Of a DNA stretch of 64,000 nucleotides, positions 7,281 through 57,311 are shown one piece after another (position 1 is the first letter of the stretch; each line of letters opens with the position of its first letter). A program made the translations under genes and the position numbers. Under the pieces are notes generated by a model. That model had not been told where the DNA came from. It did not search any database and was given only the letters and a program-made list of their open reading frames with translations. The stretch comes from Eledone cirrhosa. Taxonomy: Eukaryota. Location of the stretch: NCBI GenBank assembly GCA_964016885.1, contig OZ024762.1, forward strand, positions 1,302,001-1,366,000, in the 5' to 3' direction.

Positions 7281-10200
7281 TATCATCATTAACATCATCA
7301 TCATCATCATCATCATCATTAACATTATCATCATTAACATCAGAACCATCATCATCATCATGAACATCAGGATCCTCATAATTATCTTCATCATCATCAT
7401 CATCATCATCACGTTAGGGTTTATATTCCAAGTACACAATCTCTTACACTGAGTTAGGTTAGCAAAATTTAAGGGTGGGGTGGAATAAGAGCGGTGGGGT
7501 TTGAAAAAAACTTGGAAAATTAACAAGCTGGGGTGGGGGACGATTATTCAAACCTGAGAGTACCCAAAGTCTTACCCTGTCAATATCTTTTATCCTTGCC
7601 ATGAGTCAATATGAACCAGGAAAAATTCTGAAAAATTAGTAATTTGTGGGGTGGGTGAGGGCAGGGCAGTTAATCGAGACCACAGAGTATGTAAGAAATC
7701 CTTATTATGTTCCTTCTTTATTTCAGATGGGTATTGAACACCAGTATTTGGCCATGTCTATGAAAGATATGCAGACAGTCTACCAAGCTGACACCAAAGA
7801 TCTCTGGGTCATTTATTGTCCAGTTAAAGGTAACCTTTCTTTTTAATCACACTAACTTTAACCCTAACCCTGTGTAAGAGGGTCAAACAAAATAAATCAA
7901 ACAGCATTTCAACTTTTATATATATATATATATCATCATCATCATTTTACGTCCGCTTTTCCCTGCTTGCAAGGGTAAGACGGAACTGATTCTGGCTTGA
8001 TTTCTACAGCTGGATGCCCTTCCTAACACCAACCTCATTTACAGTGAGTGCTGGGTGCTTTTTTGCAGTGGAATGATAGGGACCCCAGTCCCTATCATCT
8101 CATTTCTACAGCTGAGTAAACTGGAACAATGTGAAATAAAGTGTCTTGCTCAAGGAAACAACACATCACCCGGTCTGAGAATTGAACTCAGGTGCAATAC
8201 AACTCATCAAAGGTGCATGTATTGTACATAGAATAATTGTTTCTACTTTTGGCACAAGGCCAGCAATTACCCAGTACATTACTGGTACTTTATTTTATCA
8301 ACCCCGTAAGGGTGAAAGGCAAAGTTAACCTCGATGGGATTTGAACTCAGACCGTTAATGTACAAATATCAGGAAAGTGAACAGTGTGTGAGTCGTGATA
8401 TACATGTGTGCGTGTGTACGGAGGGGGAATATCAGGTGTAGTGTTGACGAATTTCGGGAAGCATGGAAGTTTTAAAGGATGCAGTGTCCCGACAGCTAAC
8501 AACTGATGTATATTTCTTTAGAAATACAATTATTAAAGGGTTAACCTTCTATTTCAGATATGGTGTGTGCCTGCCACTGTCCTAGTGATAATATGTGGTA
8601 CCGAGCCAAAGTTATTGACGTACCAGGAGAACAAATGGTCAGTGTTTGTTACGTAGACTATGGAAACACAGAAATAGTCTACTACAAGAATCTCCGCAAA
8701 TTGCTTGATAAGTTCATTGTGTTACCAATTCAGGTAAGAGATTTATTGTAAAAAATTCAGGTGTCTTTTGTGGTTAAGAAAACGGGAAAGACAAAAGCTC
8801 TAGATCAGGCGTGGGGTTAGGGTGGTGTGTGAGGTGGGGAAAATCACTTCATAGTGGGACAGGAAATAGTTAGAAATATATTAAGAGTGTGTAACTCTCC
8901 ACAAGAGGCTATAAACCTCTACCTTCTTCCCCTGGATCATCATGTCTCACATTGTCTTCCATTTTCTCTTTTTTCATTTGAAGGCAAAACCTTGTAAACT
9001 GGCATATGTTGAACCCCTGGATTCCGAGGAAGACTTGACTGAGGTAAAGTATTTGTTGCTTTTATTGTTAATATATATACACACACACACACACATATAT
9101 ACACAAAAGCATACACACACACACATATATACACAAAAGCATACACACACATATATATATATATATACATCAATTTATTGTGTTTATTTCTATATTTAAG
9201 GGGACAGCTTGGTTGGTGGAAAATTTTCTCCTGAAAGAATGTCTTATAGATGTTGTTGGTAAGTTGACTTTTGATGTTTCTTAAAACTTCAAATATTATA
9301 TATACTATATATACAATAGTATATACACCAAATATTATATATGCTATATATTATATATACTATATATTATATACACTATATATTATATATTACATACACT
9401 ATATATTATATATACTAAACCTTATATACACTAAATATTATATATACTATATATTGTATTACTATATATGGTCACTCGTGTAGGACACCTCGTTTTTTTT
9501 TCATTTTGTAAAAAGACCTCACTTTCTAATATATATATACTGTAAATATTATATATACTAAATAGTATATGCACTAAACATTATATATATTAAATATTAT
9601 ATATATTATATATATTGTATATACTGTGTTATACTAAATATTATATACACTAAATATTTTTACCAAATATTATAAACACTAAGTATTATATATATTAAAT
9701 ATTTTTACTAAGTATTATACACACTGAATTTATATACTAAATATTATATACACTAAACCTCTCTCAAATCTTGATAGTTTTCAAAATGATTTAAAAATGA
9801 CAAGCTTTGTCTTCCATTAAAAAATACCGTAATATTTCAAATAACATAAATAAAGTATTTTTCTCTTTCTACACGACCAGCTGTACATGATACCTACACA
9901 GAAGTGATTCTACAACATACAGAGTCAGGTTTGGTTATCAATGATTCCATCGTTGAGTTGGGCTATGCTAAGAAATCACCAACAGCGTATGTACTTCTTA
10001 GACTTATTGTCTTGGTTTTTTCATTTTTTTATATCAACCCTTTAGCATTTAAACTGGTTGTATCTGGCCAGAATTCTCTCTCCTCTTTCTGTTCTAACTA
10101 GCTGTAACTGGCCACTCATACTGATGTTAACACTTTACCATTTACATTACTCTATATATACTATTGTATTTTCACAGTAAAGGCTTTACCTCACATAATG

Positions 10201-10612
10201 TTATGTGAGGTAAAGCCTTTACTGTGACAATACAATAGTATATATAGAGTAATGTAAATGCTATGTGAAATATTTATGTGAGGTAAAGCCTTTACCGTGA
10301 AAATACAATAGTATATATAGAGTAATGTAAAGGGTAAAGGGTTAACCTTTGTGGGAGAAAAACAATTGATGTATATTCTAACGAAGAATCATGTTATTGA
10401 TTTTGGTGTTTGTCTTGTACAGGCCAAGCTGTATTCCTCAAATTATCCTCAGAAGTTGTGAAAGTCCCAGTATTAATGATTCCAGCGGTTCTTTATCTCC
10501 TGAACCTCCAACACATCAGGTAACAACACTTCCTATTGCATAGCAAGGTGAATCATCTATCTGTCTGTCTGTCTATTTATCTATCTATCAACGGCTCTAT
10601 CTACCTATTTAG

Positions 10613-10698
<86 letters not shown>

Positions 10699-11192
10699 AG
10701 GCACATGGCTTAGTGGTTAGAGCATTGGCCTTGCAATCGAAAGGTTGTGAGTTCAATTCTCAGACCGGGTGATGTGTTGTTTCCTTGAGCAAGACACTTT
10801 ATTTCACATTGCTCCAGTTTACTCAGCTGTAGAAATGAGATGATAGGGACTGGGGTCCTTATCATTGCCCTGCAAAGTGGTCGTGTAGGTGCCACGGCAA
10901 AAAAGCACCCAGCACTCACTGTAAATGAGGTTGGTGTTAGGAAGGGCATCCAGCTGTAGAAATCAAGCCAGAATCAGTTCCCGTCCCACCCTTGCAAGCA
11001 GGGAAAAGTGGACGTAAAATGAAATGAATGAATGAATGAATATATATATATATATATATATTAGAAAGAGTCGGGACCCGACAGCTAAGTTCTTGCCATT
11101 TCAACAGCTAGCTTAAAACTAGTTCAATCCATATATATATATATAATATTATATTATATATATATATATCATCATCATTGTTTTAACATCCA

Positions 11193-12040: not shown

Positions 12041-15000
12041 CTATATATATACATATATCTATATATACATATACATACACATACATATATATATATACAT
12101 ACATATACATATATCTATATATATACACATACATATACATATATATATACACATGCATATATCCATACATGTGTATATTTATACATACATGCCTGCACCA
12201 TACTCAGGTACATACATACATCTCTCTCCCCTTCTACCCCCCCCCTCTCTACTCTCCCCCACTCCCCTACCCCCCATTCACCATATTTATATTTCTCTGG
12301 TCAAGTTTAATGCAGTCCCTGGAGGAGGATTACAAGGACTCAGCCCCAGAACCAGGACTTACCGGTACAATTGGTGGAGATTATGCCGTTTATTTTCCAA
12401 TAGAAGACCAAGTATATGACTGGTATCGAGTGAGAGTACACGACATGCTTCACAGCAACCTACTACAGGTAAATATCATCAAGGTACCCTTGGGTCCCAA
12501 ATAATTGGGGGGGGGGGTAATTTTATATAAGAACCCTACATTAAGTTACTATCTTAGTAATGATATAATTAATAATTTTAGTAAATATTTCCAAATTGTT
12601 CATTAATTAATTAAAATAGAATATAATTCATTAGAAATGCAGCCATGAAAGGGTTAAAACGACGCCATTGCTTGAATTTTTCAGGTTTTCTTCGTAGACT
12701 TCGGTAATACGGAAATAGTTCAGGTTTCCAACATACGTATGTTAAATACAAAGTTTCTGATGTATTCTTCATACGCTATGAAGTGTCACCTCTTTGGTTA
12801 TATCTCAGCTGGGGACAAGAAGGAATGGTCCCAGACTGCCTGCGAGTTTGCTTTGGAAGAACTGAAGGGAAAAAGGTATTATGTTGTGAAAAAGGTAAGA
12901 CATTTTTACGTTAAGGGTTGTATATATACTATATAGTGTTGTATATACTCTATATACAGTGTTATATATATATATATTATAGACTTTGTATAGTGTTGTA
13001 TATATATATATAGTGCTGTATATACTATATATACAGTATATATACAGTGTTGTATACTATATATACATTGTTGCATATATACTATGTATAGTGTTGTAAG
13101 ATAGATTGAGGGGACGGGCGGGGAGGAATTGGAATAAAATGTCTTTAGACAAAAATGACAGGTCCATTCATGTTGACATCTGTATTATATATATATATAT
13201 GTGTGTGTGTGTGTATAAAAATATACGTTAGGAAGGCGAGGCTGTGTGGTTACTGAAAACAAAGTGTTAGAAGATAAGGTGACACAAACAAGAGATGAAA
13301 AGTTTCCCTTCATCAGCTGTTTACTACGGATCATGGATGTTTTGGCACATTATATATATATCTGTCTCTATCTCTCTCTTTCCAGGAAGAGATTGTCAAC
13401 AGTTCTCTACCTGTAGATCTCCTCATTGAAAACTTCACAGCAGAAACGGCCCTGGAACCTGCATCTCGAAAATATTACAGCCTTGGCAAAAGCTTACAAG
13501 AAAACGGACTGGCCATACCTACAAGAAGGTAAAAATATTTTTAATAAGACACTTATTGCACTCTTTAACCCTTTCAAAACTATATTTCTAATGAAAGACA
13601 CTGTCTATCTCATTAACCCTTCCATTACCATATTTCTAATGAAAGACTGTCTATGTCATTAACCCTTCCATTACCATATTTCTAATGAAAGACACTGTCT
13701 ATGTCATTAACCCTTCCATTACCATATTTCTAATGAAAGACACTGTCTATGTCATTAACCCTTCCATTACCATATTTCTCCATTTCAACTATATATTCTT
13801 TCATTTTTAGATCACAATCCAACCGAAGTCTCTCCATTGCTACAGAGATGAGTTGTTTGAAACGACCACCCGACATGCACTTCAAACCTTATCCTTTGCC
13901 CTCAGAGAACTTAATATATGTGGTACCCACCTACATTGATGATGATGGGACTATTTTTGCTCATGAATGTCATAAAGGTAACTTGATACTTGTTCAGTAC
14001 TCTTTGTGTATTTGACTTCAAACTGCACTAAACTGCACCTATTTTAAGCCGCACCTCTCACCCATGCTACATGTCCTACCCCCCCTCTCAATCTACATCT
14101 ATTACTACACTTCCCCTCACATTACACTTGCCTCATACTACACCTCCCTCTTTATTACCTCCTTTCTACTTCTCGTTGGTTTACTTAAGTGAGGGAGGAA
14201 GAGGAGACATTAAAGTTAAACCAGTATTCTCTCCAACCACTATTCTCTCTATTTCAGATGACACGTCCCCATTGGAAGAACTAAACAAACTAATTTATTC
14301 CCACTATCCTAACTGTATCATTGAAGATTTGAAACAGTTTCAGTGGGAAGTGTCTGATTCTTGCCTGTGTTTCTATGAAACCGAGAAAGTCTGGGCCCGA
14401 GCGAAGATCATTGCTGTGCAAGAACTGATCATGGTGAGGAATAGAGATGTAATGACTATCAAAGAGGTCCTCAGTGTTTTTTTATTTTTCTTTTGAAATA
14501 TTTGGTGGGGGATTTTGTTTGTGGTGGACTGGATGTTGTTTTATTGTTTTAGAAGTTTGTGTTTTGTGACCGAGAAATTGTATTTGTTATAGGTAGTAAA
14601 TCACGGTGAAGGAAGGAGATGTGAAGGTTATCAAAGAGTGGTTGTGTAGGTGCCATGACAAAAAGCACCCAGTCTACACTGTAAAGTGGTCATGTAGGTA
14701 TCATGACAAAAAGCACCCAGTCCACTCTGTAAAGTGGTCGTGTAAGCGACACAACAAAAAGCACCCAGTACAGACTCGGTAAAGTGGTTGACATTAGAAG
14801 GCCCTACAGTATGGTCCCTACCACCAATGGTAGACCACACTGAAATATATATATATATATATGCTGTCTGTATGTGATGTTGTCCAAGCGAAAGGCTAAG
14901 GCCGATACAGCTTGGCACCACTGACATTGCAACTGATTTCTAGAGCTGAGTAAACTGGAGCAACATAAAATAAAGTGTCTTGCTCAAGGACACAACACAT

Positions 15001-15424: not shown

Positions 15425-17751
15425 TATATATATATATTTATATATATAGGGAAATAGTCAGGACCCCGACGGCTGAGCTCCGGCCATTTCAACAGCTAGA
15501 TCTGAACTAAACTAGTAGTGTTAGGATGGCCACTAATACTACTGGTTTAGTTCGGATCTAGTTGTCGAAATGGCCGGAGTTCGGCCATCCTGACTCTTTT
15601 CCTATTACCCACTCTACTACCCTAAGTATTGAGTACTCTGGTGGGTTATCTTACCACACCCTCTTTGTTATATATATATATATATATAGATTTTCGTCAA
15701 ATTTGATGAGAGTCGATCGGCTGTCTTTATATATATATTTATATATATATACCGATCCAGACGTATATTATTATCGTCTGGGATCCAGAAACCTTTAGTA
15801 ATGGAGTAGTTATATTTTGTGTTGTTCACTTTCTAATTAAATAGCTCTGTTCTGTACATAGAGCACTCTTTTTTCTTTTGCTTTTCCTAACACATATATA
15901 TATATAAATGTCTGTGTGTTTCCTGTAGATGATGTCTGGTAAATGGACCTCAAATATCTTGGACTTCATGCATGATGCCATTGTTGGGAAACTGTGTGGT
16001 ATTCAACAAATGGTAAGTGGCGGCAGTTTAAATTCTTTCTTCTTTTAAAATATTCAACTTTGCTAAACCTTGTTGGATGCCCCATCTCAATCTTTCTATT
16101 TCTTCTTTAATTCCTCATTCTATTTTCTGATGAAGGACGAGCGTCCGAAACGTTAAGACTCTTTTCCTACTACATCAAGCATAAAACTAATATATCTCTT
16201 CATTGTACTGTCATTTGCTTTGTTATTTCTGTCTGCCTTTTACATACATATATACATACATATATATTTATATATATGCCGTACACACATATACATATAT
16301 ACATACATATATATTTATATATATGCCGTACACACATATACCTATGTATCTGTATGTATCTCATTACTGTATTGTCCCAAACTGCCATATCGCTGAGTTA
16401 ACCAAATGGGTGCTAACTGCTCTTTATAAGCCTTATAACCACACAACGATTGTGCACTTCTATAGTGCAGGATTGCTTGCAAAGCAATTTGGTGAAACTG
16501 CAGTCGGGGCTTTGAAGAAAAAATAGGTATATTTTTGTCTATTGTTTCTTCACATTTTTAATTCGATATATATATATATATATATTTTTTTTTCAATTAT
16601 TTTTCCTTGCCATTAGTCGATGAGAGAAAACGAAATCTGTGAGGTGAGGTTGATAGATTCCGATGGTCAGGAACTGGGGGAGCTTCTATGTGAAAAAAAG
16701 TACACCTACCAAAAATATGGACTGGCTTTCTTGGAAGAACAGAGTAAAAAGATTGCCCAGATGTTGAAGGTTTGTTTCAAAATATTTCTTTCTTTAATAA
16801 TTCTTCGAGTGTTTTATTTGAATCTCACACACTACCAATAACACTAACATAACACTAACATTGGTGACCTTGTCAAGTCCTTAACCCTTTAGTATTCGCA
16901 TTACTCTATACTTACTCTAGTATTGTAGTAAAAGCTTTATCTCACATAATATCGAATCTATGAGATTTTGATGAGAACAATACCTTAACATCAGTATGAG
17001 CAGCCAGTTACAGTCGGTTTGAACAGAATGAGGTGAGAGAATTCTGTTCTACTGGCTAGTTTAAATGCTAAAGGGTTAACACAGATGAAGGGTCCTCCTG
17101 ATATTATGACTAGTGGAGGACATGTACTAACATTGACACACACCACTTGTGGTGGTGGTAGGGATTGTGTTGGTGGTAGTGGTGGTGGTGGTAGGGATTG
17201 TGTTGGTGGTGGTGGTGGTGGTAGGGATTGTGTTGTTGGTAGTGTGGGTGGTGGTGGTAGGGATTGTGGTGGTGGTGGTGGTGGTAGGGATTGTGTTGTT
17301 GGTAGTGTGGGTGGTGGTGGTGGTAGGGATTGTGTTGTTGGTAGTGTGGGTGGTGGTGGTGGTGTGGGTGGTAGGGATTGTGGTGGTGGTGGTGTGGGTG
17401 GTGGTGGTAGGGATTGTGTTGTTGGTAGTGTGGGTGGTGGTGGTAGTAGGGATTGTGTTGTTGGTGGTGGTGGTGGTAGTGGATATGATGATGATATTGG
17501 CAGTGGTGATTATAGTGATGATGATGATGGTAGTGATTGTGTTGTTGTTGGTGTTGGTGGCAGTGGTGGTGGTGTTTGTGATAGTGATGATGATGATATG
17601 TAAAATAAATTTTCTATTTTCTATATTTCAGTCATCCAATCCATACAAAAACATGAAGTTGACTTTTTCTAAATCCATTCCAGTCTTAGTGACACAAGTT
17701 GAACTACCAAATGTGGTAAGTAGTAGTAGTAGTAGTAGTGGTGGCAGCAGC

Positions 17752-17798
<47 letters not shown>

Positions 17799-19752
17799 TA
17801 GCAGTAGTAGTAGTAGTAGGTTGTGTAGGTGTCAGACAAAAAGCACCCAGTCCACGCTGTAAATGAGGTTTGTGCTAGGAAGGGCATCCAGCCATAGGAA
17901 CCAAGCCAGAATAAGTTCTGTATGAGCAAGACAAGGTCACCTGACCTGGCATTGCCCCACAACAGGACAACCCATCTAACCCATGCTAGAGTGGAAAGAT
18001 GGACGTAAAATGGTGATGATGATGATGATGATGATATGTGTTTATATTTTTCATTCTGAAAGAATTATGAATAATTTGTAAAGTTATTTATACAACAGTG
18101 AATAACATTTTCAGTATATATAGCTTAAAGATTGCCTCAAAATGTTTCATCTAACTCATACCACCATTGAAAGGGTTACGTAAAAATGATGATGTGAGGT
18201 GATATATGATATCATTTTTTAAAAAAATCTTTTTTTAAATGTTGTTTTTTTTTATTTGTCTAATTCTTTCCTTTCCAGATATATTTCCAAAATTGTCAGA
18301 GGCCCAGCAATAACGAAGAAAGCCATCGAATTAACAAACAACTTCTCCAGTTAGAAGAGTTATCTGTGGAACTCCACAAGTACGCAGAGACTGCTCCTCC
18401 ATTACACAAACCAGTCATTGGTGAGTGAACCTTACCTCGTACTTTGTTTTAACCCTTTCGGAGGGGGGGGGGCATATTTATGTATGTTTTGTATTTCATT
18501 TATTTGACCATATATGGTAATGTTTGCATCTCTCATTTCCTTCACCATATATGGTAACGTCTGTAGGTAAAGCCTGTTGCTGTCAGTTCACCGTGGATGA
18601 CTGTTGGTACCGCTGTGTTATTGCTGATGTTAAACAGAACGATGTGTTAGTTCTCTACGTTGATTATGGCACCTCGGAATATATTGATATGTCAAGGTAA
18701 GGAGGAAACTTTCTAGAATGTTCTCTTTTATTGGCTGTGAGGGTGGTGGTGGCGGCAGTAGTAGTGGTGGTGTGTTGGTGGTGGTGGTGACAATGGTAGG
18801 ATAGGGCCTATTCAGCACAGCATCTCTCCATTTGTCATGTTCCTTCGTCATCTCCTCCGTGAGCTTCAGCGATCTGAAATCACCACCTCTGCCCATGTTT
18901 TTCGTGGTCTTCCTTCCACCGAGATTTCTTGGCATTTCTTTACCCAGCGGTTATCCTCCATGCGCATCACATGTCCATACCATCTCAGTCTTCTCTCCTG
19001 CACACCACAACTTATCCCTCTTATACACAGTTTCTCTATCAACTTGTCCATGCTTGGTCATTCACGTACGTTGACATTGCACATCCATCCGAACATGCTC
19101 GCTTCATCGCTCTCCAGCCTTCGCATATCCTCCGCAGTTGCTGCCCATTAAATATTATAGTTAATATTGTTACACATCTCACAATATTAACAGCAGCAGA
19201 ACCACCCTTAGGGTAGTTTTCTGCTACCATGTGTAATTGTTACATATCTCACAATGCTTCGTATTAACTAAACTAGTTTATTGTTGTGATATGAAATTAT
19301 TTCAGAGTTCGAGAGATCTCTTCCAAGTACCTAAAGTTGCCATCACAAGCAGTGCGCTGTGTTGTGAAGGACATGAAGGCCCCAACAACATCAATTTGTC
19401 TGTGGACCGAAGAAGCTATGAAAGGTGTAATTGATTGTGTTGTTAACAAAGAATTAAAAGCAGTTTTAAAGGTAAGGCTGGTGTAATAAATGGTGGGGGG
19501 GAGGCATATATATATGAATGGACCTGTTATTTTTATCTAAAGACATTTTTCCCAATTCCACCCCGCCCGTCCTCCTCAATCTATTTTATTTCTCATTCTT
19601 TCTTCTGATGAAGGACTAGCGTCCGAAACGTTAAGACCCTCTTCCTGCTATATCAAGTGTTAACCAAATATATTCCTTCCATATACTGTAGCGATTGTGT
19701 TGTTATTTCTGTTTACATTTTACATATATATATATATCTTTAGTTCTGTGAG

Positions 19753-21322: not shown

Positions 21323-21927
21323 GGACACCTGAGTCTAAGGAATTCTCTTTTAGAAGATCCCACCACACCATATTTCATAAGAGGCAATCTAATAAGAAAG
21401 GGTTGGCGTTTGGGAACGACATCCAGTTGTTCCTTCGAAACATACAATCCCATCCAGACCATACCAACCCCATGCCAGCAGGGAAAAGTGGCCCTTAAAA
21501 ACTAACAACAATGATGATGATGGTGGTGGTGATGATGGTGTTGATGATGATGGTGTTGATGATGATGATGATGGTGGTGAAGATGAGGAAGAGGAGGTTG
21601 TCAAGACAGACATCAATGGAACTATTTCAAAAGTCCCCCCCCCCCCACAATAATAATAATAATTGTTTCTACTTTTTAAGCACAAGACCAGCAATTTGAA
21701 GGGGAGGGGAAAGTCGATTGAATCACCCCCAGTGCATTACTGGTACTTTATTTTATCAACCCCGTAAGGATGAAAGGCAAAGTTAACCTCGACAGTATCT
21801 GAGTTCAAATCCCGCCGAGGTTGACTTTGCCTTTCATCCTTACGGGGTTGATAAAATAAAGTACCAGTAATACACTGGAGTAATTGCTGGCCTTGTGCCT
21901 AAAGTAGGAGCTATTATTATTGTGACC

Positions 21928-24345: not shown

Positions 24346-26279
24346 CATATATATATGTATACACAGATATATATACACATAGATATGTATAAGCTAACCT
24401 CAATGGTATTTGAAATCAGAATGTATTTTGATCATTGTAAATACAAATAAAATATGTTATCTATTGCTCCACCAATTCTGCCAAGCCAGTGCTGTAGTAG
24501 AAAAATAAATAAGGAATTAGATAAATATAAGTTTTAAAAATGTCCAACTCTCTTTATTGATTAAATATGCCTAGAGAATCATTAATCAATTTTTATTGTA
24601 AGCTGTAGAAATCTCCTGTGTTTGGGGACAGAAAAAGCAATATACTGGATGCCATGATGGATATTAAAATGTTGCATTCATTAGTTAAGTCTCCCTCAGG
24701 AATATAATATAAATAGAACACAAGTTATCTTCATTTCATGCTTACTTGCGCATTAATGATGTTTCCCTTTGGAATATAATATGTAAGGAGTTCTGATTAA
24801 GGCACAAGGCCAGCAATTTGGAGAAAGACGGGGGAAATCGATTAAATCGACCCCAGTGCATTACTGGTACTTTATTTTATTGACTCCAGTGTATTACTGG
24901 TACTTTATTTTAGCGACTCCGTAAGGATGAAAGGCAAAGTTAATCTCAGCAGCATTTGGACTCAAAATGTTGCAATTAGTTTTAAATAAATACTGCAAAG
25001 CATGTTGACCGGCGCGCTGCCACTACACAGCCCTAATGCATGTTGACCGGCGCGCTGCCATACGCAGCCCTAATAATAATTGTTTCTAACATTGGAAGTT
25101 ATACAAAAGATCCGCCTTCCCTTATGTACGAACTTAAACCTACAACCAGTAGGTACCTCTTAACCCAATATACACCCCACACCCCCTACTCCATCCACCC
25201 ACTTCTGTCCACTGTAAAGTGGTCATGTAGGTGTCACAACAAAAGGTACCCAGTCCACACTGTAAAGTGACCATGTATGTGTCACAACAAAAAGCACCCA
25301 GTCCACACTGTAAAGAGGTTGTGTAGGTGTCACAACAAAAAGCACCCAGTCCACACTGTAAAGTGGTAGTGTAGGAGACAGTAAAAAAGCTCCCAGTCCA
25401 CACTGTAAATGTGGTTGGTGTTATGAAGGGCATCCAACTGTAGAAAACCTGCCAGTTACAGTTTTATATGAGCAAGACACGGACACCCGACCAATCTTGC
25501 CTCAAGTGGTATAAACCTGTTCAACCCGGATTCTGCTGTTCTATGTCCCAAACCTGACACCTCAAATAAAACATTCTATAAACTACACAATTAGAGAACA
25601 TGCTTCAATGAACTTGGAGAATGTCATGCTCTCTCTCTCTATCTCACACCTCTCTCTTACTCCCACACCTCTCTCTCTTTCACCTCTCTCTTACTCCCAC
25701 ACCTCTCTCACTTCTTACTCTCACTCTCTCTCTTACTCTCACACCTCTCTCTTTCTCACATCTCTCTCTTACTCTCACACCTCTCTCTTTCTCTCTGTTG
25801 ATTATGGTGAGGGTGGAGGTAATATTCATGGGTCAGGTGTTCAACAGTTTAATTCTCCTTAACTATATCCTGGAGAAGGAGGAGGGGGTATGAAATTGAG
25901 AGCCGAAGGTGATTGATAGATAGAAATAGGTGAGTATACAGATAGATAGATGTATATATATATATATAAGTACATACATACACTTACACCCACACACACT
26001 ATATATATATATATATATAATGTAGATATTTATACACATATATATGTATATATAAACGTTTGTATATGTATAATAAAGCCAAAACAATGCAGGTATGGAC
26101 ATAGAATAAAGAATGCAAATGCAAAAGATATTGTTGACAATTAGTCTTTTACTTTAGATTTATTTAAATGTCCTTAATTTTCGAGATAATATCTCTTCTT
26201 CGGAGGGAAGTAAAGGGGTTAAACCAGTGTTCTAAATAGCTTGCCAAGTCATGCAGACAGGAATGCTGAATACTTTATA

Positions 26280-29309: not shown

Positions 29310-39749
<10,440 letters not shown>

Positions 39750-43035: not shown

Positions 43036-44254
43036 AAAATTTGCTTATTTTGGGACAGCTGACAGAGAAGTCCTTGTTATGACTGGCGACTCACCTCACA
43101 GGTGTCAGGCGATGCCTGTGATGGTACCTGGTTATTTCAACACCTTAGCCTCATGGTAAAGCTGCGAGCGTTTTGGCTTGCCTCAAAGTGTGTAGTTAAC
43201 CCCTAAGATGTGAGGTGCGGCCGATTGTTGCACTTGGTGGTGACCCCCCCCCCTTCCTTTTATCAGTATTGTTCAATGAATTATATATACAGTGTGTCCC
43301 CAAAAATGTATACACACTTCAAAAGGATTCTAATAAATATTGCCTGTACAGGTAATCTTTTTTATACAATATTTTGGTGTAGTAATGAAAATTACCCCCA
43401 CCCCTACAAAAATAATAATAATAATTGTTTCTACTTTTGGCACAAGGCCAGCAAACATCCAGTGTATTACTGGTACTTTATTTTATCGACCCCGTAAGGA
43501 TGAAAGGCAAAGTTAACCTTGGCGGGATTTGAAATCAGACCGCAAAGGGCCGTAACTCTATGCTGCAAAGCATGGCGTCCGACCCTTTACTGATACTGCC
43601 AATAATAAAAACGCACAACGGCACAACAAAAGGGTGTTAGAGTTACCCTCAAATAATGTTTGAGGCAAGCCAACACACAAGCAGTATTTATCAGTACTTT
43701 TATATTTTATTATTTTGAGCTAAATCTAATTCTGTGTATTTAACAGGAACTCCTTTCAGTGTCAGAAGTCCTAGGAATAACAATACAAATCAACAAATGT
43801 GAAAAACAACCTCAGGTAAGAACTTCCTCTTTCAGAATTCACTTGTCAACATACCAGATATCTTTAGATATATGAAATTCACATACTTGAGTGTATATAA
43901 TTATGTTGAGCTTAAGTTTTAATATATATATATATATATATATGTAAAAGGTAAACAAATAACAACACATTCAGTACAGTATATGGAAGGGATATATTAG
44001 GTTAACGCTTGATATAGCAGGAAGAGGGTCTTAACGTTTCGGACGCTAGTCCTTCATCAGAAGAAAGAATGAGAAATAAGATAGATTGAGGGGGACGGGC
44101 GGGGTGGAATTGGAAAAAAATGTCTTTAGATAAAAATAACAGGTCCATTCATGTTGACATCTCTTGCAAAACTGTTGGTGGTGGTGTTTTGTGTATGATT
44201 TATTTTTTAGAAAAGTGGATGATGGAGCGCGTCTACATGAAATGAAAAAAATAA

Positions 44255-44285
<31 letters not shown>

Positions 44286-47200
44286 CGTTACCATAGTATT
44301 TTCTTTCAATATTTTTCCAGACTCCATTTTTAATAGTAGAACTGGAATCAGAAAATAATGTGAAACAATTGTTGAAGAGAACCATGTTGATAAAGTAAGA
44401 ACTTCTTGCATCATGTGTCTTGTGTATGGGGGGGGGGGGGTAGTGTAGTGTGTGTGTATGTATACTGCAAGTGTGGTTTGTGATGTGTGTATATAGACTA
44501 TATGTTCATGTGTGTACATTGTAGTATTGTATATTTTTGAAAAACCATTCTTTTTAAAGTTTTCATATTAATTTCTCCTCTCCCTCCACCTCCTGCACCT
44601 CCACTTCCTCTCCCTCCCACCACCTCCCCCTTCTAGGTCAGCCTATGAACTCTGGGCCAAAGGAAATTCTTTATCCAGTCTAAATGAACAGCTAGCCAAG
44701 CTTCCTCCAGAAATTACAGTATGTCTATATATACCTTCTGTTTATCTTTCATCATCGTCATCATCATCATAATCACTGTCATCACAGACGAATGACTTTC
44801 GTCAAATCGGACCGAGGAAACAATGTTTCCGTTGGTCTTTCCAATTGCTAATACTATCTGTCGGTCGCAACTCCAGGTAGAAGGAGCAACGTGAAATAAA
44901 GTGTCTTGCTCAAGGACATAACGCATCGCTTGGTCCACCACTTTCTGTTCTAACCAGCTGTAACCGGCTGCTCATACTTATGTTAAGGTATTGTTCTCAA
45001 AATAAATAATATCAAGATCTTGTAGATTTGATATTATGTGAGATAATTATTTGAAATAAAGTGTTTTCCATGAAAATACAATAGTATATATAGAGTAATG
45101 TAAATGACAATCAGTATTTAGCTGCTATTTCTAGTGGCAATTTTGACTCGTCACTTTTGACCGTTTATGATGATGATTATGATAATGATGAAAGAATCTC
45201 TCTATTTTATTCTATATTTTGTTGCAGACTCCGTACACATCGGCAGACTCCACATTTAAAATTGTAGTCGAGGCATTCAACAAAAAAATCCCACCGAAAG
45301 AAAAGTTGGAAAAAATTGATGTCAGTGAAATCTTTTTATCTTTTGTTAACTGCCTGCTTAATTTAAACCGGTCGTATCTGGCCAGAATTCTCTCACCTCT
45401 TTCTGTTTAAACCGGTCATAAGAGTCTGCTTATACTTACATTCTCAAATTAAATAATATCAAAATCTCATAGATTCGTTATTATGTGAGGTAAAGCGTTT
45501 ACTGTGAAAATACAATAGTATATATAGAGTAATGTAAATGTTATGTGAGATATGTGAGGTAAAGCCTTTACTGTGAAAATACAATAGTATATATAGAGTA
45601 ATGTAAATGTTATGTGAGATATGTGAGGTAAAGCCTTTACTGTGAAAATACAATAGTATATATAGAGTAATGTAAATGTTATGTGAGATATGTGAGGTAA
45701 AGCGTTTACTGTGAAAATACAATAGTATATATAGAGTAATGTAAATGGTAAAGGGTTAAATAATGTGTAACGCCCCAGACTAATTACTTGGATAGTAGAA
45801 TACTCCCAAAATAATTAGTAGTGCAGAAGGCAACCCCCAAATTAAAATCAGGGTGGTAGAATACCCCTGATTACATACTAGGGTGGAAGGACACTAGAAA
45901 CAAAACCACCCATTTTAAAGGTTCCTATTAAAATTAATGTCGGCAGTAAATTGGCAGAGTCGTTAGAGCGTCAGATAGAATACTTTATGGTATTCGTTCC
46001 GGCTCCCTCAACCAAACCTTCAGCAAAACTATTCCCTATTATGAAAGTATTTGCTCAACGGTTCGTATGTATGATTGATCCCTAGGGAAGACCAACCAAG
46101 CTGAGGTCTACCCCTGCGTCTCCTGCCGGTTGGTTTTGCCCGTAAAATCTGTCCTAAACCTGACCACAAATACCATCTTACGAATAAAATATAAAATGAT
46201 TTTAATAAATGTTTTGTTTGTTGTTTTAGTCCCTTCCTTGGACAGAATTAGGGTTCAAGGGAAAGATACAACTGAAGGACCCAGACCATAGCTTTCATCT
46301 GTTTGAATATTACCAAGTTGAGAAAGGAATGCACTCAGCACTTGAACCTTCATCTCTCTACTTTGGACGATTTGTAGGTACTTTATATTTATATATATAT
46401 ATGTACTATATATATATATACTGTATATATATGTGTAGTTCTTTATATTTATATATATATGTGTACTATATATATATACTGTATATATATGTGTAGTTCT
46501 TTATATTTATATATATATGTGTACTATATATATAGTGTATATATATGTATTTCTTTAAATATAAGGTTAAATATATATATGTATATATATATATGTAGGT
46601 ACTTTATATTTATATATGTGTGTGTACTACATATATTGTATATATATATGTGTAGTACATCTTGAGGTCGATAAAGAAAGTACCAGTCAAGTACTGGGGT
46701 CGATTCTTCCTCTATATCTCTTTCTCATTTCCTCTCTCTCTCTTTCTCTGGAAGAAATCTGCTGTACCCAGGCCTGGAGAGGGGTGGGCTCCGCCAGGGA
46801 TATTTAAAAAATGCCCTAGATACGCTGTATGTCAATACTGGGTGTATTATATCATGACACCAACACTACTACTTTACAGAGTGTACTGGGTGTATTATAT
46901 CATGACACCAACACTACTACTTTACAGAGTGTACTGCATGTATTATATCATGACACCAACACTACTACTTTACAGAGTGTACTGGGTGTATTATATCATG
47001 ACACCAACACTACCACTTTACAGAGTATACTGGGTGTATTTTATCATAACACCAACACTACCACTTTACAGAGTGTACTGGGTGTATTATATCATGACAC
47101 CAACACTACTACTTTACAGAGTGTACTGGGTGTATTATATCATGACACCAACACTACTACTTTACAGAGTGTACTGGGTGTATTATATCATGACACCAAC

Positions 47201-49073
47201 ACTACTACTTTACAGAGTGTACTGGGTGTATTATATCATGACACCAACACTACTACTTTACAGAGTGTACTGGGTGTATTATATCATGACAACATTACAT
47301 TACTGAGTGGAAAACTGTTGTTTACTGGAAGTAGAACAAATGACTGAGTTATGGGGACCCACGAGAAGATAAGAAATAAGGGCTGTTTACATGACTTTCT
47401 CCCTTTTAGGGTTTACCAACTGATCCCTATTTTTATCTTTAATTTCAGATTGCTGGGGGAGTTCGAAACCAGATCCAGCACTACCACCTCCAGAAAAGAT
47501 GTTTTATAGGTAAAGACAGTATTTATGAGGGTGGTGTGGTGTGTGTTGGGGTTTTTGTAAGGCATGAGGGTGGTAACACTAGGAGGTGAGGACTAGTCCA
47601 CTATGTTGTGGGTAATGCCAGTATGATGTTGGACTATACCATTCTGTTGTGGGTAATACCAGCATGATGTTGGACTATACCATTCTGTTGTGGGTAATAC
47701 CAGTATGATGTTGGACTATACCATTCTGTTGTAGGTAACACCAGCATGATGTTGGACTATACCATTCTGTTGTAGGTAATATCATCATGATGTGGACTAT
47801 ACCATTCTGTTGTAGGTAACACCAGCATGGATGCTGGCCTATCTTTCATTATGGCCAACATGGGAAAGGCTTCAGAAAACAAGTTGATATTTGATCCTTT
47901 TGTTGGAACAGGTAAGTTGTCTTCTTTTTAGAGAGAGAGAGAGAGAGAAATATAGAGGAACAGTTGACCCTAGTATTTTACTGGTATTTTATTTTATCAA
48001 CCACAAAAGAAGGAAAGACCACAAAAGTAGACCTCAACAGAATCTGAACTGCAACACACACAAGCCTCCCAGCAATAACTAGACAAAGAAGATATTTAAA
48101 CCGGCCGTATCTGGCCTGGATTCTCTCACCCTTTTCTGTTCAAACCAGCTGATCATACTGACATTATGGTCTTATTCTCAAAATAGATAACATCAAAATC
48201 TCATAGATTCGATATTATGTGAAGTAAAGCCTTTACAGTGAAAATACAATAGTATATATAGAGTAATGTAAATGTTATGTGAGGTATTATGTGAGGTAAA
48301 GCCTTTACTGTGAAAATACAATAGTATATATAGAGTAATGTAAATGTTATGTGAGATATTATGTGAGGTAAAGCCTTTACTGTGAAAATACAATAGTATA
48401 TATAGAGTAATGTAAATGTTATGTGAGATATTATGTAAGGTAAAGACTTTACTGTGAAAATACAATAGTATATATAGAGTAATGTAAATGGTAAAGGGTT
48501 AAACATTTCTTTCGAAATTCTTGTGTGTTAAACACATCTCTGTCTAATTTACTGTTGCCCTGTTTCTTTTCAGGAAGTTTACTAGTCTCTGCGGCCCATT
48601 TTGGGAGTTATGTGATGGGGGCAGATTTAGATTATCTACTTTTACATGGAAGAGGTAAGCTATCCACCCTACCCATCCACAACCAAACACACACAATCCC
48701 GCGAGCACACAGTCCACACACACACATTGTTTTCTGTTTTGCCATATTTCTCCGTTAGATGTGCTCTATAAATGTTATTTTCCTCTTTAAATTTTGTTTC
48801 CATTTCCACCCTGCCTATCTCCTCAATCTTTCCATTTCTTCTCTCATTCTATCTTCTGATGAAGGACCAGCGTCTGAAACATTAAGACTCTTTTCCTATT
48901 ATATCCAGCATAAAACAAATAATATATTTCTTCATTGTACTGTGGCGTTTACTTTGTTATTTCTGTTTGCCTTTTGCATACATACATACATACACATATA
49001 TATATATATATATTACCCGTCTAACCCATGCTAGCGTGGAAGGTGGGCGTTAGACGGTGATGATGGTGATATA

Positions 49074-51212: not shown

Positions 51213-51620
51213 TGTATATATATATATACATGTATATACATATATATATATGTGTGTGTATATGTATATATCATTTCATCATCATTTCATTTTACGTCCG
51301 CTTTTCCCTGCTTGCAAGGCTGGGACGGGAACTGATTCTGGCTTGATTTCTACAGCTGGATGCCCTTCCTAGCACCAACCTCATTTACAGTGAGTGCTGG
51401 GTGCTTTTTAGTCGTGGCACCTCCACGACCACTTTGCAGTGGAATGATAGGGACCCCAGTCCCTATCATCTCATTTCTACAGCTGAGTAAACTGGAGCAA
51501 TGTGAAATAAAGTGTCTTGCTCAAGGAAACAACATATCACCCGGTCTGAGAATTGAACTCACAACCTTTCGATTGCAAGGCCAATGCTCTAACCACTAAG
51601 CCATGTGCCTCCACATTATG

Positions 51621-56286: not shown

Positions 56287-56791
56287 GTTTATCCCAGGTT
56301 CAATTAGAGGTAACCACAGTAAGTAAGGTACTCAATACATAGCAGAGTATAAATATTTAATATAGAAATGGCTTCTACAGGACTAGAACTGTTTCATTCA
56401 GGAGAAATCATCAGGAAAGCCTGTATTGAGTACCTTACTTACTGTGGTTACCTCCGATTGAAACCGAGATAAACACACACACATATATAGAGAGAGAGCG
56501 AGGGGCACTCCGTCGGTTACGACGACGAGTGTTCCAGTTGATCCGATCAAGGGAACAATCTGCTACTCGTGAAATTAACGTGTAAGTCGCTGAGCATTTC
56601 ACAAACACGTGTCTCTTCACGTAGTTCTCAGGGCCATTCAAATTACTGGTACAACTTATTTTTTGCCAGCTGAGTGAACTGGGGCAACGTTAAATAAAGT
56701 GTCTTGCTTAAGGACACAACACGTCGCTGGGAATCGAACTCACGACTTTACGATTGTGAGCCGAGAACCCCAACCACAAAGTCACGCGTCT

Positions 56792-56912: not shown

Positions 56913-57311
56913 GGCACTACCATGTTATTAGCTGTCAGAAGTGAAAGTTTCGCCAACATTCTCAATCATAAACATCGTTTATTTCCGTATTACCACGCGT
57001 TATTTTAATAAAGCATATCGATGTAAGTGGAGTTACTTAAATGAAAATATAGGTGGCCCTTAAAAGGGCCAAATTAGAAAATATAAATGATTAAATCCAA
57101 TTTATTTGATAACCATGACCTGTTTCCTAATTAACTTAAATTTGTTTTCTAATTTGGCCCTTTTAAGGGCCACATATTTTCATTTAAGTAACTCCACTTA
57201 CATCGATATGCTTTATTAAAATAACGTGTGGTAATACGGAAATAAACGATGTTTATGATTGAGAATGTTGACGAAACTTTCACTTCTGACAGCTAATAAC
57301 ATGGTAGTGCC
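56913..57311. mobile_element. Foldback MITE, 399 bp, ~170-bp TIRs, 6-bp TSD TTACAG
   Basis: GGCACTACCATGTTATTAGCTGTCAG...CTGACAGCTAATAACATGGTAGTGCC; TTACAG at 56907-56912 and 57312-57317. Confidence 0.88.

Follow-up and report, generated by a model that had tools for sequence, protein, structure and literature searches.

Dispersed hammerhead-bearing repeats of Eledone cirrhosa are very probably truncated ends of a Neptune-type Penelope-like element

A repeat of about 200 bp carrying a minimal hammerhead ribozyme (HHR) recurs through a TA-rich, 64,000-nucleotide stretch of Eledone cirrhosa contig OZ024762.1 (here, the window), and raises the questions of what element it belongs to, how so many short copies arise and whether the ribozyme is put to any use. 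The initial annotation of this DNA had listed six dispersed copies and interpreted them as a distinct non-autonomous element or retrozyme. We recovered all six with blastn, nhmmer and alignment and refined their limits, which were broadly as first given except that the minus-strand copy near 44 kb extends beyond its claimed end (Table 1).

Table 1. Copies of the repeat, and features within them, in the 64-kb window; offsets are counted from the predicted cut.
Feature	Position	Strand	Remarks
Solo 5'-truncated pLTR, young subfamily	19514..19725	+	-118 to +93 relative to predicted cut; 94% to reference pLTR
Minimal type I hammerhead of the 19514..19725 copy	19601..19636	+	Predicted cut after U17 (19632)
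Solo pLTR, older subfamily	about 16086..16245	+	Intact core 16123-16158
Solo pLTR, young subfamily	31174..31337	+	Intact core 31213-31248
Longest window copy, reaching -217	43942..44251	-	Intact core 44029-44064
Decayed solo pLTR, older subfamily	48773..48979	+	Core broken: ACAT, GTCT
pLTR fragment without hammerhead, -128 to -44	13097..13181	-	Ends before motif
Putative internal Pol II promoter of pLTR	44142..44175	-	Inr-like ACAGTT plus DPE-like GGACC; presumed function

The hammerhead is of the minimal form without loop 3, with a conserved core, an extra base after A9, a G10.1-C11.1 pair and a palindromic stem III. In the 19.5-kb copy it is made up of stem I (TCTT/AAGA), CUGAUGA, the extra A, stem II (GGAC/GUCC), GAAA and the palindrome ACGU. 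All five motif-bearing copies had been credited with the full set of motif elements; four of them (16127+, 19605+, 31217+ and 44060-) pass a strict minimal-HHR descriptor that gave 0 matches in genome samples totalling 600 kb with the sequence reversed, whereas in the copy at 48.8 kb the palindrome is broken because ACAT replaces ACGT, and stem II carries GTCT, with the loss of one pair. Stem I was likewise said to be TCTT/AAGA in every copy but is TTTT/AAGA, with a U-G wobble, in the 16-kb copy, while the stem-II loops (GAGC, TAGC, TAGT and CAGC) are as originally read. The 16-kb and 48.8-kb copies show 80-84% identity to the young subfamily. The Rfam models did not detect the motif: hammerheads were absent among the 150 window matches listed of 234, and three loci searched separately gave no match at gathering score. 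A window-wide ARAGORN search found no tRNA gene, consistent with the reported lack of a tRNA head.

The window also holds other repeated or structured sequences. A tRNA-related, SINE-like repeat is present at 10693-11027 and 51282-51616, the two copies being 97% alike and in opposite orientation, and tRNA-like Rfam matches fall at 10706, 23191, 51546 and 63028 among the window matches listed. Long near-perfect hairpins of fold-back or MITE-like appearance lie at 21749-21858, 10148-10251 and 56299-56462, with weak miRNA-model scores. Histone 3' stem-loop matches occur at 57031-57075 (-), at gathering score, and at 57151-57195 (+). Minisatellite arrays with a 48-bp period, all of one family and in both orientations, occupy 2099-2830, 35304-36419, 46692-47423, 14589-14824 and 25073-25516.

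A genome-wide search with consensus patterns showed how common the repeat is. In the 3.0-Gb genome a 32-nt exact core pattern has 3,371 matches and a 22-nt exact 3' anchor has 8,891, with 0 for either in reversed controls. A sample of sixty 10-kb stretches, placed at round coordinates, contained 4 copies, which would correspond to some 20,000 in the whole genome (about 5,000-50,000 as a Poisson range); copy density in the window is about 14 times that of this sample. To obtain an unselected set we turned to the 3' anchor, whose sequence does not overlap the motif, and took the first 100 matches in its listing. All were on contig 1, and eight were dropped (six flank duplicates, one with an N flank and one anchor-only). 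The remaining 92 copies diverge by about 4% from their majority sequence, and a TA/CA run follows the 3' end in 90 of them, which bears out the claim that copies end in (TA)n. Thirty loci taken from the 40 best matches similarly end at one fixed 3' position next to TA/CA runs, and their 5' ends are staggered.

The initial annotation had suggested looking for an autonomous PLE with RT and GIY-YIG that shares the terminus of the repeat, and an ORF-bearing family with this terminus was found. Long copies extend upstream into a common sequence that translates to a PLE-type RT, a CX4CxxC linker and a GIY-YIG domain (EN) with CCHH. Pfam matched RVT_1 with an E value of 9.6e-9 and GIY-YIG with an E value of 0.0014, the latter under the curated cut-off and in one of two EN pieces; PF01541 is present in some close homologues, and the linker was read between RT and EN in the translations of two loci (L013 and L052). 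The absence of an ORF, as first noted, is therefore limited to short copies such as those in the window, since in longer members the repeat is continuous with sequence that encodes RT and GIY-YIG. Among 20 RT loci drawn from 40 matches, 15 (one of them partial) have the pLTR 165-510 nt downstream of EN on the same strand; the remaining five comprise one with a pLTR upstream, one with it upstream and inverted, and three with none.

The other end of the element gave a matching picture. The body begins directly after a short (TA)n, and a pLTR stands directly upstream in 61 of 70 and in 41 of 50 body starts, where 14 of the 41 have one flank in common and represent one captured piece. The unit is thus pLTR-(TA)n-ORF(RT, CxxC linker, GIY-YIG)-3'UTR-pLTR, and two loci (L263 and L269) are complete from pLTR to pLTR, with HHRs 3.63 and 3.68 kb apart. 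In a hand count, 61 of 95 RT residues are identical to the Neptune1_Ap row in the supplement of PMC8557442, a comparison that did not extend to Nematis. In the older subfamily, 2 of 30 loci are joined to EN/RT. Inversion of the 5' copy is common, partial tandems with pLTRs and an optional tail are present, and copies are strongly polar: the exact 3' anchor is matched 8,891 times and the exact body start 119 times. None of 30 long loci, a small part of the family, has an intact ORF, the longest stop-free stretch being 561 aa, and so no active source was found.

Because the repeat is colinear with the RT/EN ORF, occurs in complete units and is similar to Neptune1_Ap, we conclude that the repeats are very probably the 5'-truncated 3' ends (pLTRs) of a 3.6-kb Neptune-type PLE with RT, CxxC linker and GIY-YIG, which were likely inserted into TA microsatellites by the element's own EN/RT and whose HHR is predicted to act only as a dimer. 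The description of a high-copy, TA-targeting, Penelope-related end with a dimer-type minimal hammerhead is supported, while the proposed distinct non-autonomous element or retrozyme is instead the pLTR of an ORF-bearing PLE, and no tandem arrays were seen.

The unit of near 200 bp and the type I HHR are also what would be expected of a metazoan non-LTR retrozyme, in which tandem 150-450-bp repeats carry HHRs that release circular RNA, and adjacent solo pLTRs do occur at two loci (L277 and L278). These two isolated pairs are nevertheless the only ones, and none of the 92 unselected copies (0/92) is in an array; the copies are scattered single units whose 5' ends vary, and they are colinear with the PLE. 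Their HHR belongs to the minimal PLE class, distinguished in PMC7229834 from the canonical retrozyme type, the canonical helix III with a loop is absent, and the lineage is tied to an ORF-bearing element. We therefore consider a retrozyme extremely unlikely.

A fragment of the element has been dispersed in another way. The pLTR tail together with about 150 nt of the body is embedded in a larger repeat, with common flanks over 1 kb, on several chromosomes (loci L391, L392, L394, L396, L399, L401, L402, L411-L413, L416, L417, L419, L420 [around 1250-1890] and L364). Here a PLE fragment has been picked up by another mobile unit or a duplication and multiplied with it.

We then considered whether the hammerhead is maintained. 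The initial annotation had argued for this from the window copies, in which stem II appeared to be kept while its loop varied. That argument fails because, across the 92 copies of the young set, stem II shows no conservation excess (42 changes versus 33-41 expected) and the loop no variation excess (11 versus 14-18), so that the pattern amounts to chance decay; the core, by comparison, has 21 changes versus 33-43 expected by base class. An intact HHR is found in 28 of the 65 unselected copies that span the motif. Between subfamilies, the majority base is different in 1 of 36 HHR columns and in 28 of 130 columns of the flanks (P 0.006); the one HHR difference, C to T, leaves stem I paired as U-G. 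The older-subfamily loci were, however, chosen by similarity to an HHR-containing query, which may inflate the apparent conservation. Excess conservation is thus seen between subfamilies and in the young-set core but not in young-set stem II. On these sequence comparisons the HHR appears conserved in the source lineage, and the evidence for selection lies between subfamilies and not in covariation of loop and stem in the window.

Variant hammerheads were seen beside the main form. One locus (L197) has a short duplication within the hammerhead, with a longer stem II and loop and the core kept, and several unrelated hammerhead-like motifs with a different stem II occur in the flanks of L057, L058, L061, L065, L231 and L268, pointing to further PLE families in the genome.

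Folding predictions place the HHR conformer (stems I and II) of the main variant 2.3 kcal/mol above the predicted minimum, a competing hairpin; stem II has a predicted pairing probability of 0.03-0.18. This modelled hairpin would fit the published findings that minimal HHRs are weakly active or are assisted by protein, and the HHR likely works solely in pairs; dimer cleavage was described by Lunse, Weinberg and Breaker, as cited in PMC6765202.

Two intact sense copies lie close together in the window, which had led to the suggestion that they could act on the gene that contains them. This gene, on the + strand, is a multi-Tudor gene with Pfam matches at six exons between 4387 and 18697 and with TDRD1 as the best PDB match for one exon; the 19.5-kb copy lies in one of its introns, in sense orientation to the + strand Tudor exons, and the 16-kb copy in the inferred intron 16013-16465 (about 450 nt). 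The copy at 43942..44251 (-) is antisense to the surrounding + strand exons. The hosts had been named as RNF17, an IL-17R-like gene and TRMT11: sense copies do lie in the multi-Tudor gene, but none of the three names was confirmed by Pfam, PDB or Atlas. The IL-17R-like candidate is backed weakly by a TIR/SEFIR indication from Atlas (scores, 0.81-0.87), and the TRMT11 candidate may be that gene, to judge by its motifs.

Pairing in cis of the two Tudor-gene copies (cores 16127 and 19605), with cutting of the pre-mRNA as a host regulatory switch, is geometrically possible. Both cores are intact with ACGU and both are sense to Pfam-confirmed Tudor exons, and their spacing of 3,478 nt is near the 3.63 kb of full elements. 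However, minimal HHRs are reported to have low activity as dimers and none as monomers (PMC4209133), and a published one needs the element's protein (PMC11167929). The upstream copy, moreover, sits in a short inferred intron and may be spliced out early, the motif decays in solo copies, and six copies in a TA-rich window make such a pair unremarkable. Cutting of host pre-mRNA by paired copies seems unlikely from this analysis, and a regulatory switch of this kind very doubtful.

If the solo copies are ends of a PLE, their own ends may indicate how they were made. The main 3' end is about 90 nt past the predicted cut; a second, minor 3' end lies about 135 nt into the body in 10 of 30 body-start loci, in a similar T-rich context. 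The 5' ends are staggered but pile up in one zone: 25 of the 92 unselected solos end in -139..-124 versus 2.1 expected, this window and the one-mismatch Inr tolerance used below having been picked post hoc. Six of 30 older-subfamily 5' ends fall in the same zone, as does that of the 13097..13181 (-) fragment. At its upstream edge stands a composite of Inr-like ACAGTT, with A+1 at 44173 in the longest window copy, and DPE-like GGACC at +28 to +32 (44146-44142). It departs by one mismatch from the Inr consensus TCAKTY and was judged also against the DPE consensus. The composite occurs once in the 590-nt reference pLTR, only 1 of 400 shuffles placed one in the pile-up zone, and 2 of 37 promoter-zone columns differ between subfamilies (P 0.03). 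This coincidence suggests that cDNAs run off at a transcription start, and the spot likely marks the element's own putative promoter.

The pile-up is found mainly in solos. Among copies at risk it takes 25 of 42 solos and 3 of 22 body-linked pLTRs (P 0.0005), with 3 of 6 in a replicate body-linked set; pooled, the body-linked sets have 6 ends in the zone versus 2.3-2.5 expected (P 0.03-0.04). Since 19 of the 22 at-risk body-linked pLTRs extend far upstream of the putative start, longer templates must exist too.

The pile-up could also reflect either RT stopping on long RNA or a hot spot for junctions there, with the Inr/DPE match due to chance, which would leave the PLE identity unaffected. 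The ends are scattered across 16 nt and not at a single base, predicted folding pairs -133..-127 with +6..+15, and the many body-linked copies that extend beyond the zone fit such an explanation as well. A general block, however, should hit body-linked copies equally, whereas their pile-up is far weaker, and the composite motif is unique and sits at the upstream edge of the zone. We consider a stop or hot spot possible but rather unlikely. Target microhomology does not explain the pile-up, because the zone is not TA-like.

The excess in solos would equally suit body-less templates, that is, a class of 210-225 nt forming a non-autonomous, SINE-like family of promoter-bearing solos that are transcribed and re-mobilized in trans by PLE protein; in rotifers, pLTR sequences are reported to suffice for trans mobilization (PMC3846280). 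Such a family might be expected to have its own sequence variants. We compared 28 solos with ends at -145..-124 with 74 ORF- or body-linked pLTRs and found no diagnostic column and equal divergence of about 4%, and solo-specific sites were likewise absent among about 180 columns (best P 0.016). A separate solo lineage is not evident, because the solos match the linked pLTRs in variants and divergence. Most pile-up ends, furthermore, are a few bases downstream of the Inr, so that the copies would lack it, and PAc activity needs about 60 nt past the RT start that solos do not have (PMC11167929). A SINE-like family is thus quite improbable.

We also examined whether copies end at the cut itself, as a sign of cleavage in vivo. 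Solo 5' ends do not: 0 fall in -2..+2, and 4 in -3..+7 versus 3.4 expected. The first body-linked set had 6 ends in -2..+4 versus 1.1-1.4 expected (P 0.001-0.003), a window chosen post hoc and matched by an equally full 7-nt window at +13. In a replicate with -2..+4 fixed beforehand there was 1 end versus 0.8 expected (16 at risk), so that the first excess did not replicate; the two sets pooled give 7 versus 1.9-2.3. A gap in upstream-pLTR ends from -149 to 0, seen in 18 loci, vanished in a larger set. Small shares of one RNA run and one presumed RNA run gave 1 and 135 contigs, mostly of a CA-rich stretch, with no informative joints among them.

Further upstream, at 44229-44245 (-), about 200 nt upstream of the cut, there is a polypyrimidine tract plus CAG that resembles a splice acceptor and is found in most long copies. 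No accompanying donor was located; PLEs often retain an intron near the position of this acceptor-like tract.

Taken together, these observations lead us to a tentative reading, to which we give slightly less than even weight: solo pLTRs would be the Penelope equivalent of retroviral strong-stop DNA, in which cDNA priming takes place within the upstream pLTR and synthesis runs off at a capped 5' RNA end fixed by an Inr/DPE promoter, so that the thousands of short copies mark the transcription start, and a minority of body-linked copies ending at the cut site would be relics of intracellular cleavage. The mechanism that goes with our preferred explanation as a whole is the following. Transcription would begin at an Inr/DPE-type promoter within the pLTR. 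The element's protein would nick (TA)n DNA and begin reverse transcription inside the RNA at the pLTR 3' end, as in PAc of Anolis; priming on the upstream pLTR would yield cDNA that stops early or runs off the 5' end of the RNA, producing the 210-225-nt class. Most solo copies would then likely be dead-end products of uncut RNA. The HHR appears to be kept by selection in source elements and decays in solos, and in source elements two HHRs 3.6 kb apart can pair via ACGU and probably process the transcript with the help of protein.

If the pile-up marks the transcription start, histograms of solo 5' ends could locate PLE promoters with nothing more than a genome sequence, and they would support the view, as with PAc in vitro, that the template is mainly uncut RNA. 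Hammerhead-bearing pLTR fragments are themselves already a published and abundant class (PMC4209133), and the value of the present data is mechanistic, for the origin of PLE partial tandems, the floods of solo pLTRs and the role of the hammerhead. In the literature we covered, which leaves out most subscription papers, a clustering of the 5' ends of solo pLTRs at a promoter is not described.

Minimal hammerheads in the pLTRs of metazoan PLEs were described by Cervera and de la Pena in 2014 (PMC4209133). The Eledone motif agrees with theirs in having no loop 3, a palindromic 15.2-16.2, a short stem I, an extra base between 9 and 10.1 and G10.1-C11.1; in both cases most motifs are single and dispersed, from truncated PLEs, with a few pairs about 3 kb apart flanking an ORF. 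Stem II is 4 bp in Eledone versus 7-8 bp in the schistosome motifs, and the available part of that paper has no mapping of copy 5' ends and no discussion of promoters. The portion of the main text of PMC13282606 available to us does not mention hammerheads.

With the Neptune clade of Craig et al. 2021 (PMC8557442) the element has in common the C-terminal GIY-YIG with CCHH, the CX2-5CxxC linker, partial tandems, inverted 5' copies, a microsatellite bias and an RT near Neptune1_Ap, while its optional tail is about 150 nt versus 30-40 in the clade. The octopus entries in the part of the supplement available are of Naiad and Hydra families only; the Eledone family may be present in Repbase/Dfam.

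PAc, a Poseidon element of Anolis carolinensis (Frangieh et al. 2024, PMC11167929), starts reverse transcription 85-92 nt past the HHR cut on uncut RNA, and resembles the Eledone element in its internal start, two start sites and AT-rich targets. It belongs to another clade, however; in Eledone the HHR is well upstream of the ORF with (TA)n between pLTR and body, and about 150 nt separates its two 3' ends, unlike the PAc start sites. Penelope of D. virilis also carries within its pLTR a TATA-less internal Inr/DPE promoter, which lies upstream of the HHR and has a downstream promoter element; there it was demonstrated with reporters (Schostak et al. 2008, PMC2377424), whereas in Eledone we solely infer it, and the available text of that study does not link the promoter to the 5' ends of solo copies. 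Non-LTR retrozymes (PMC7229834; bioRxiv 10.64898/2026.07.22.740005), finally, resemble the Eledone repeat in their type I HHR, their size of about 200 bp and their relation to PLE pLTRs, but they are tandem, with at least two HHR units and circular RNAs, whereas the Eledone copies are dispersed, truncated pLTRs.
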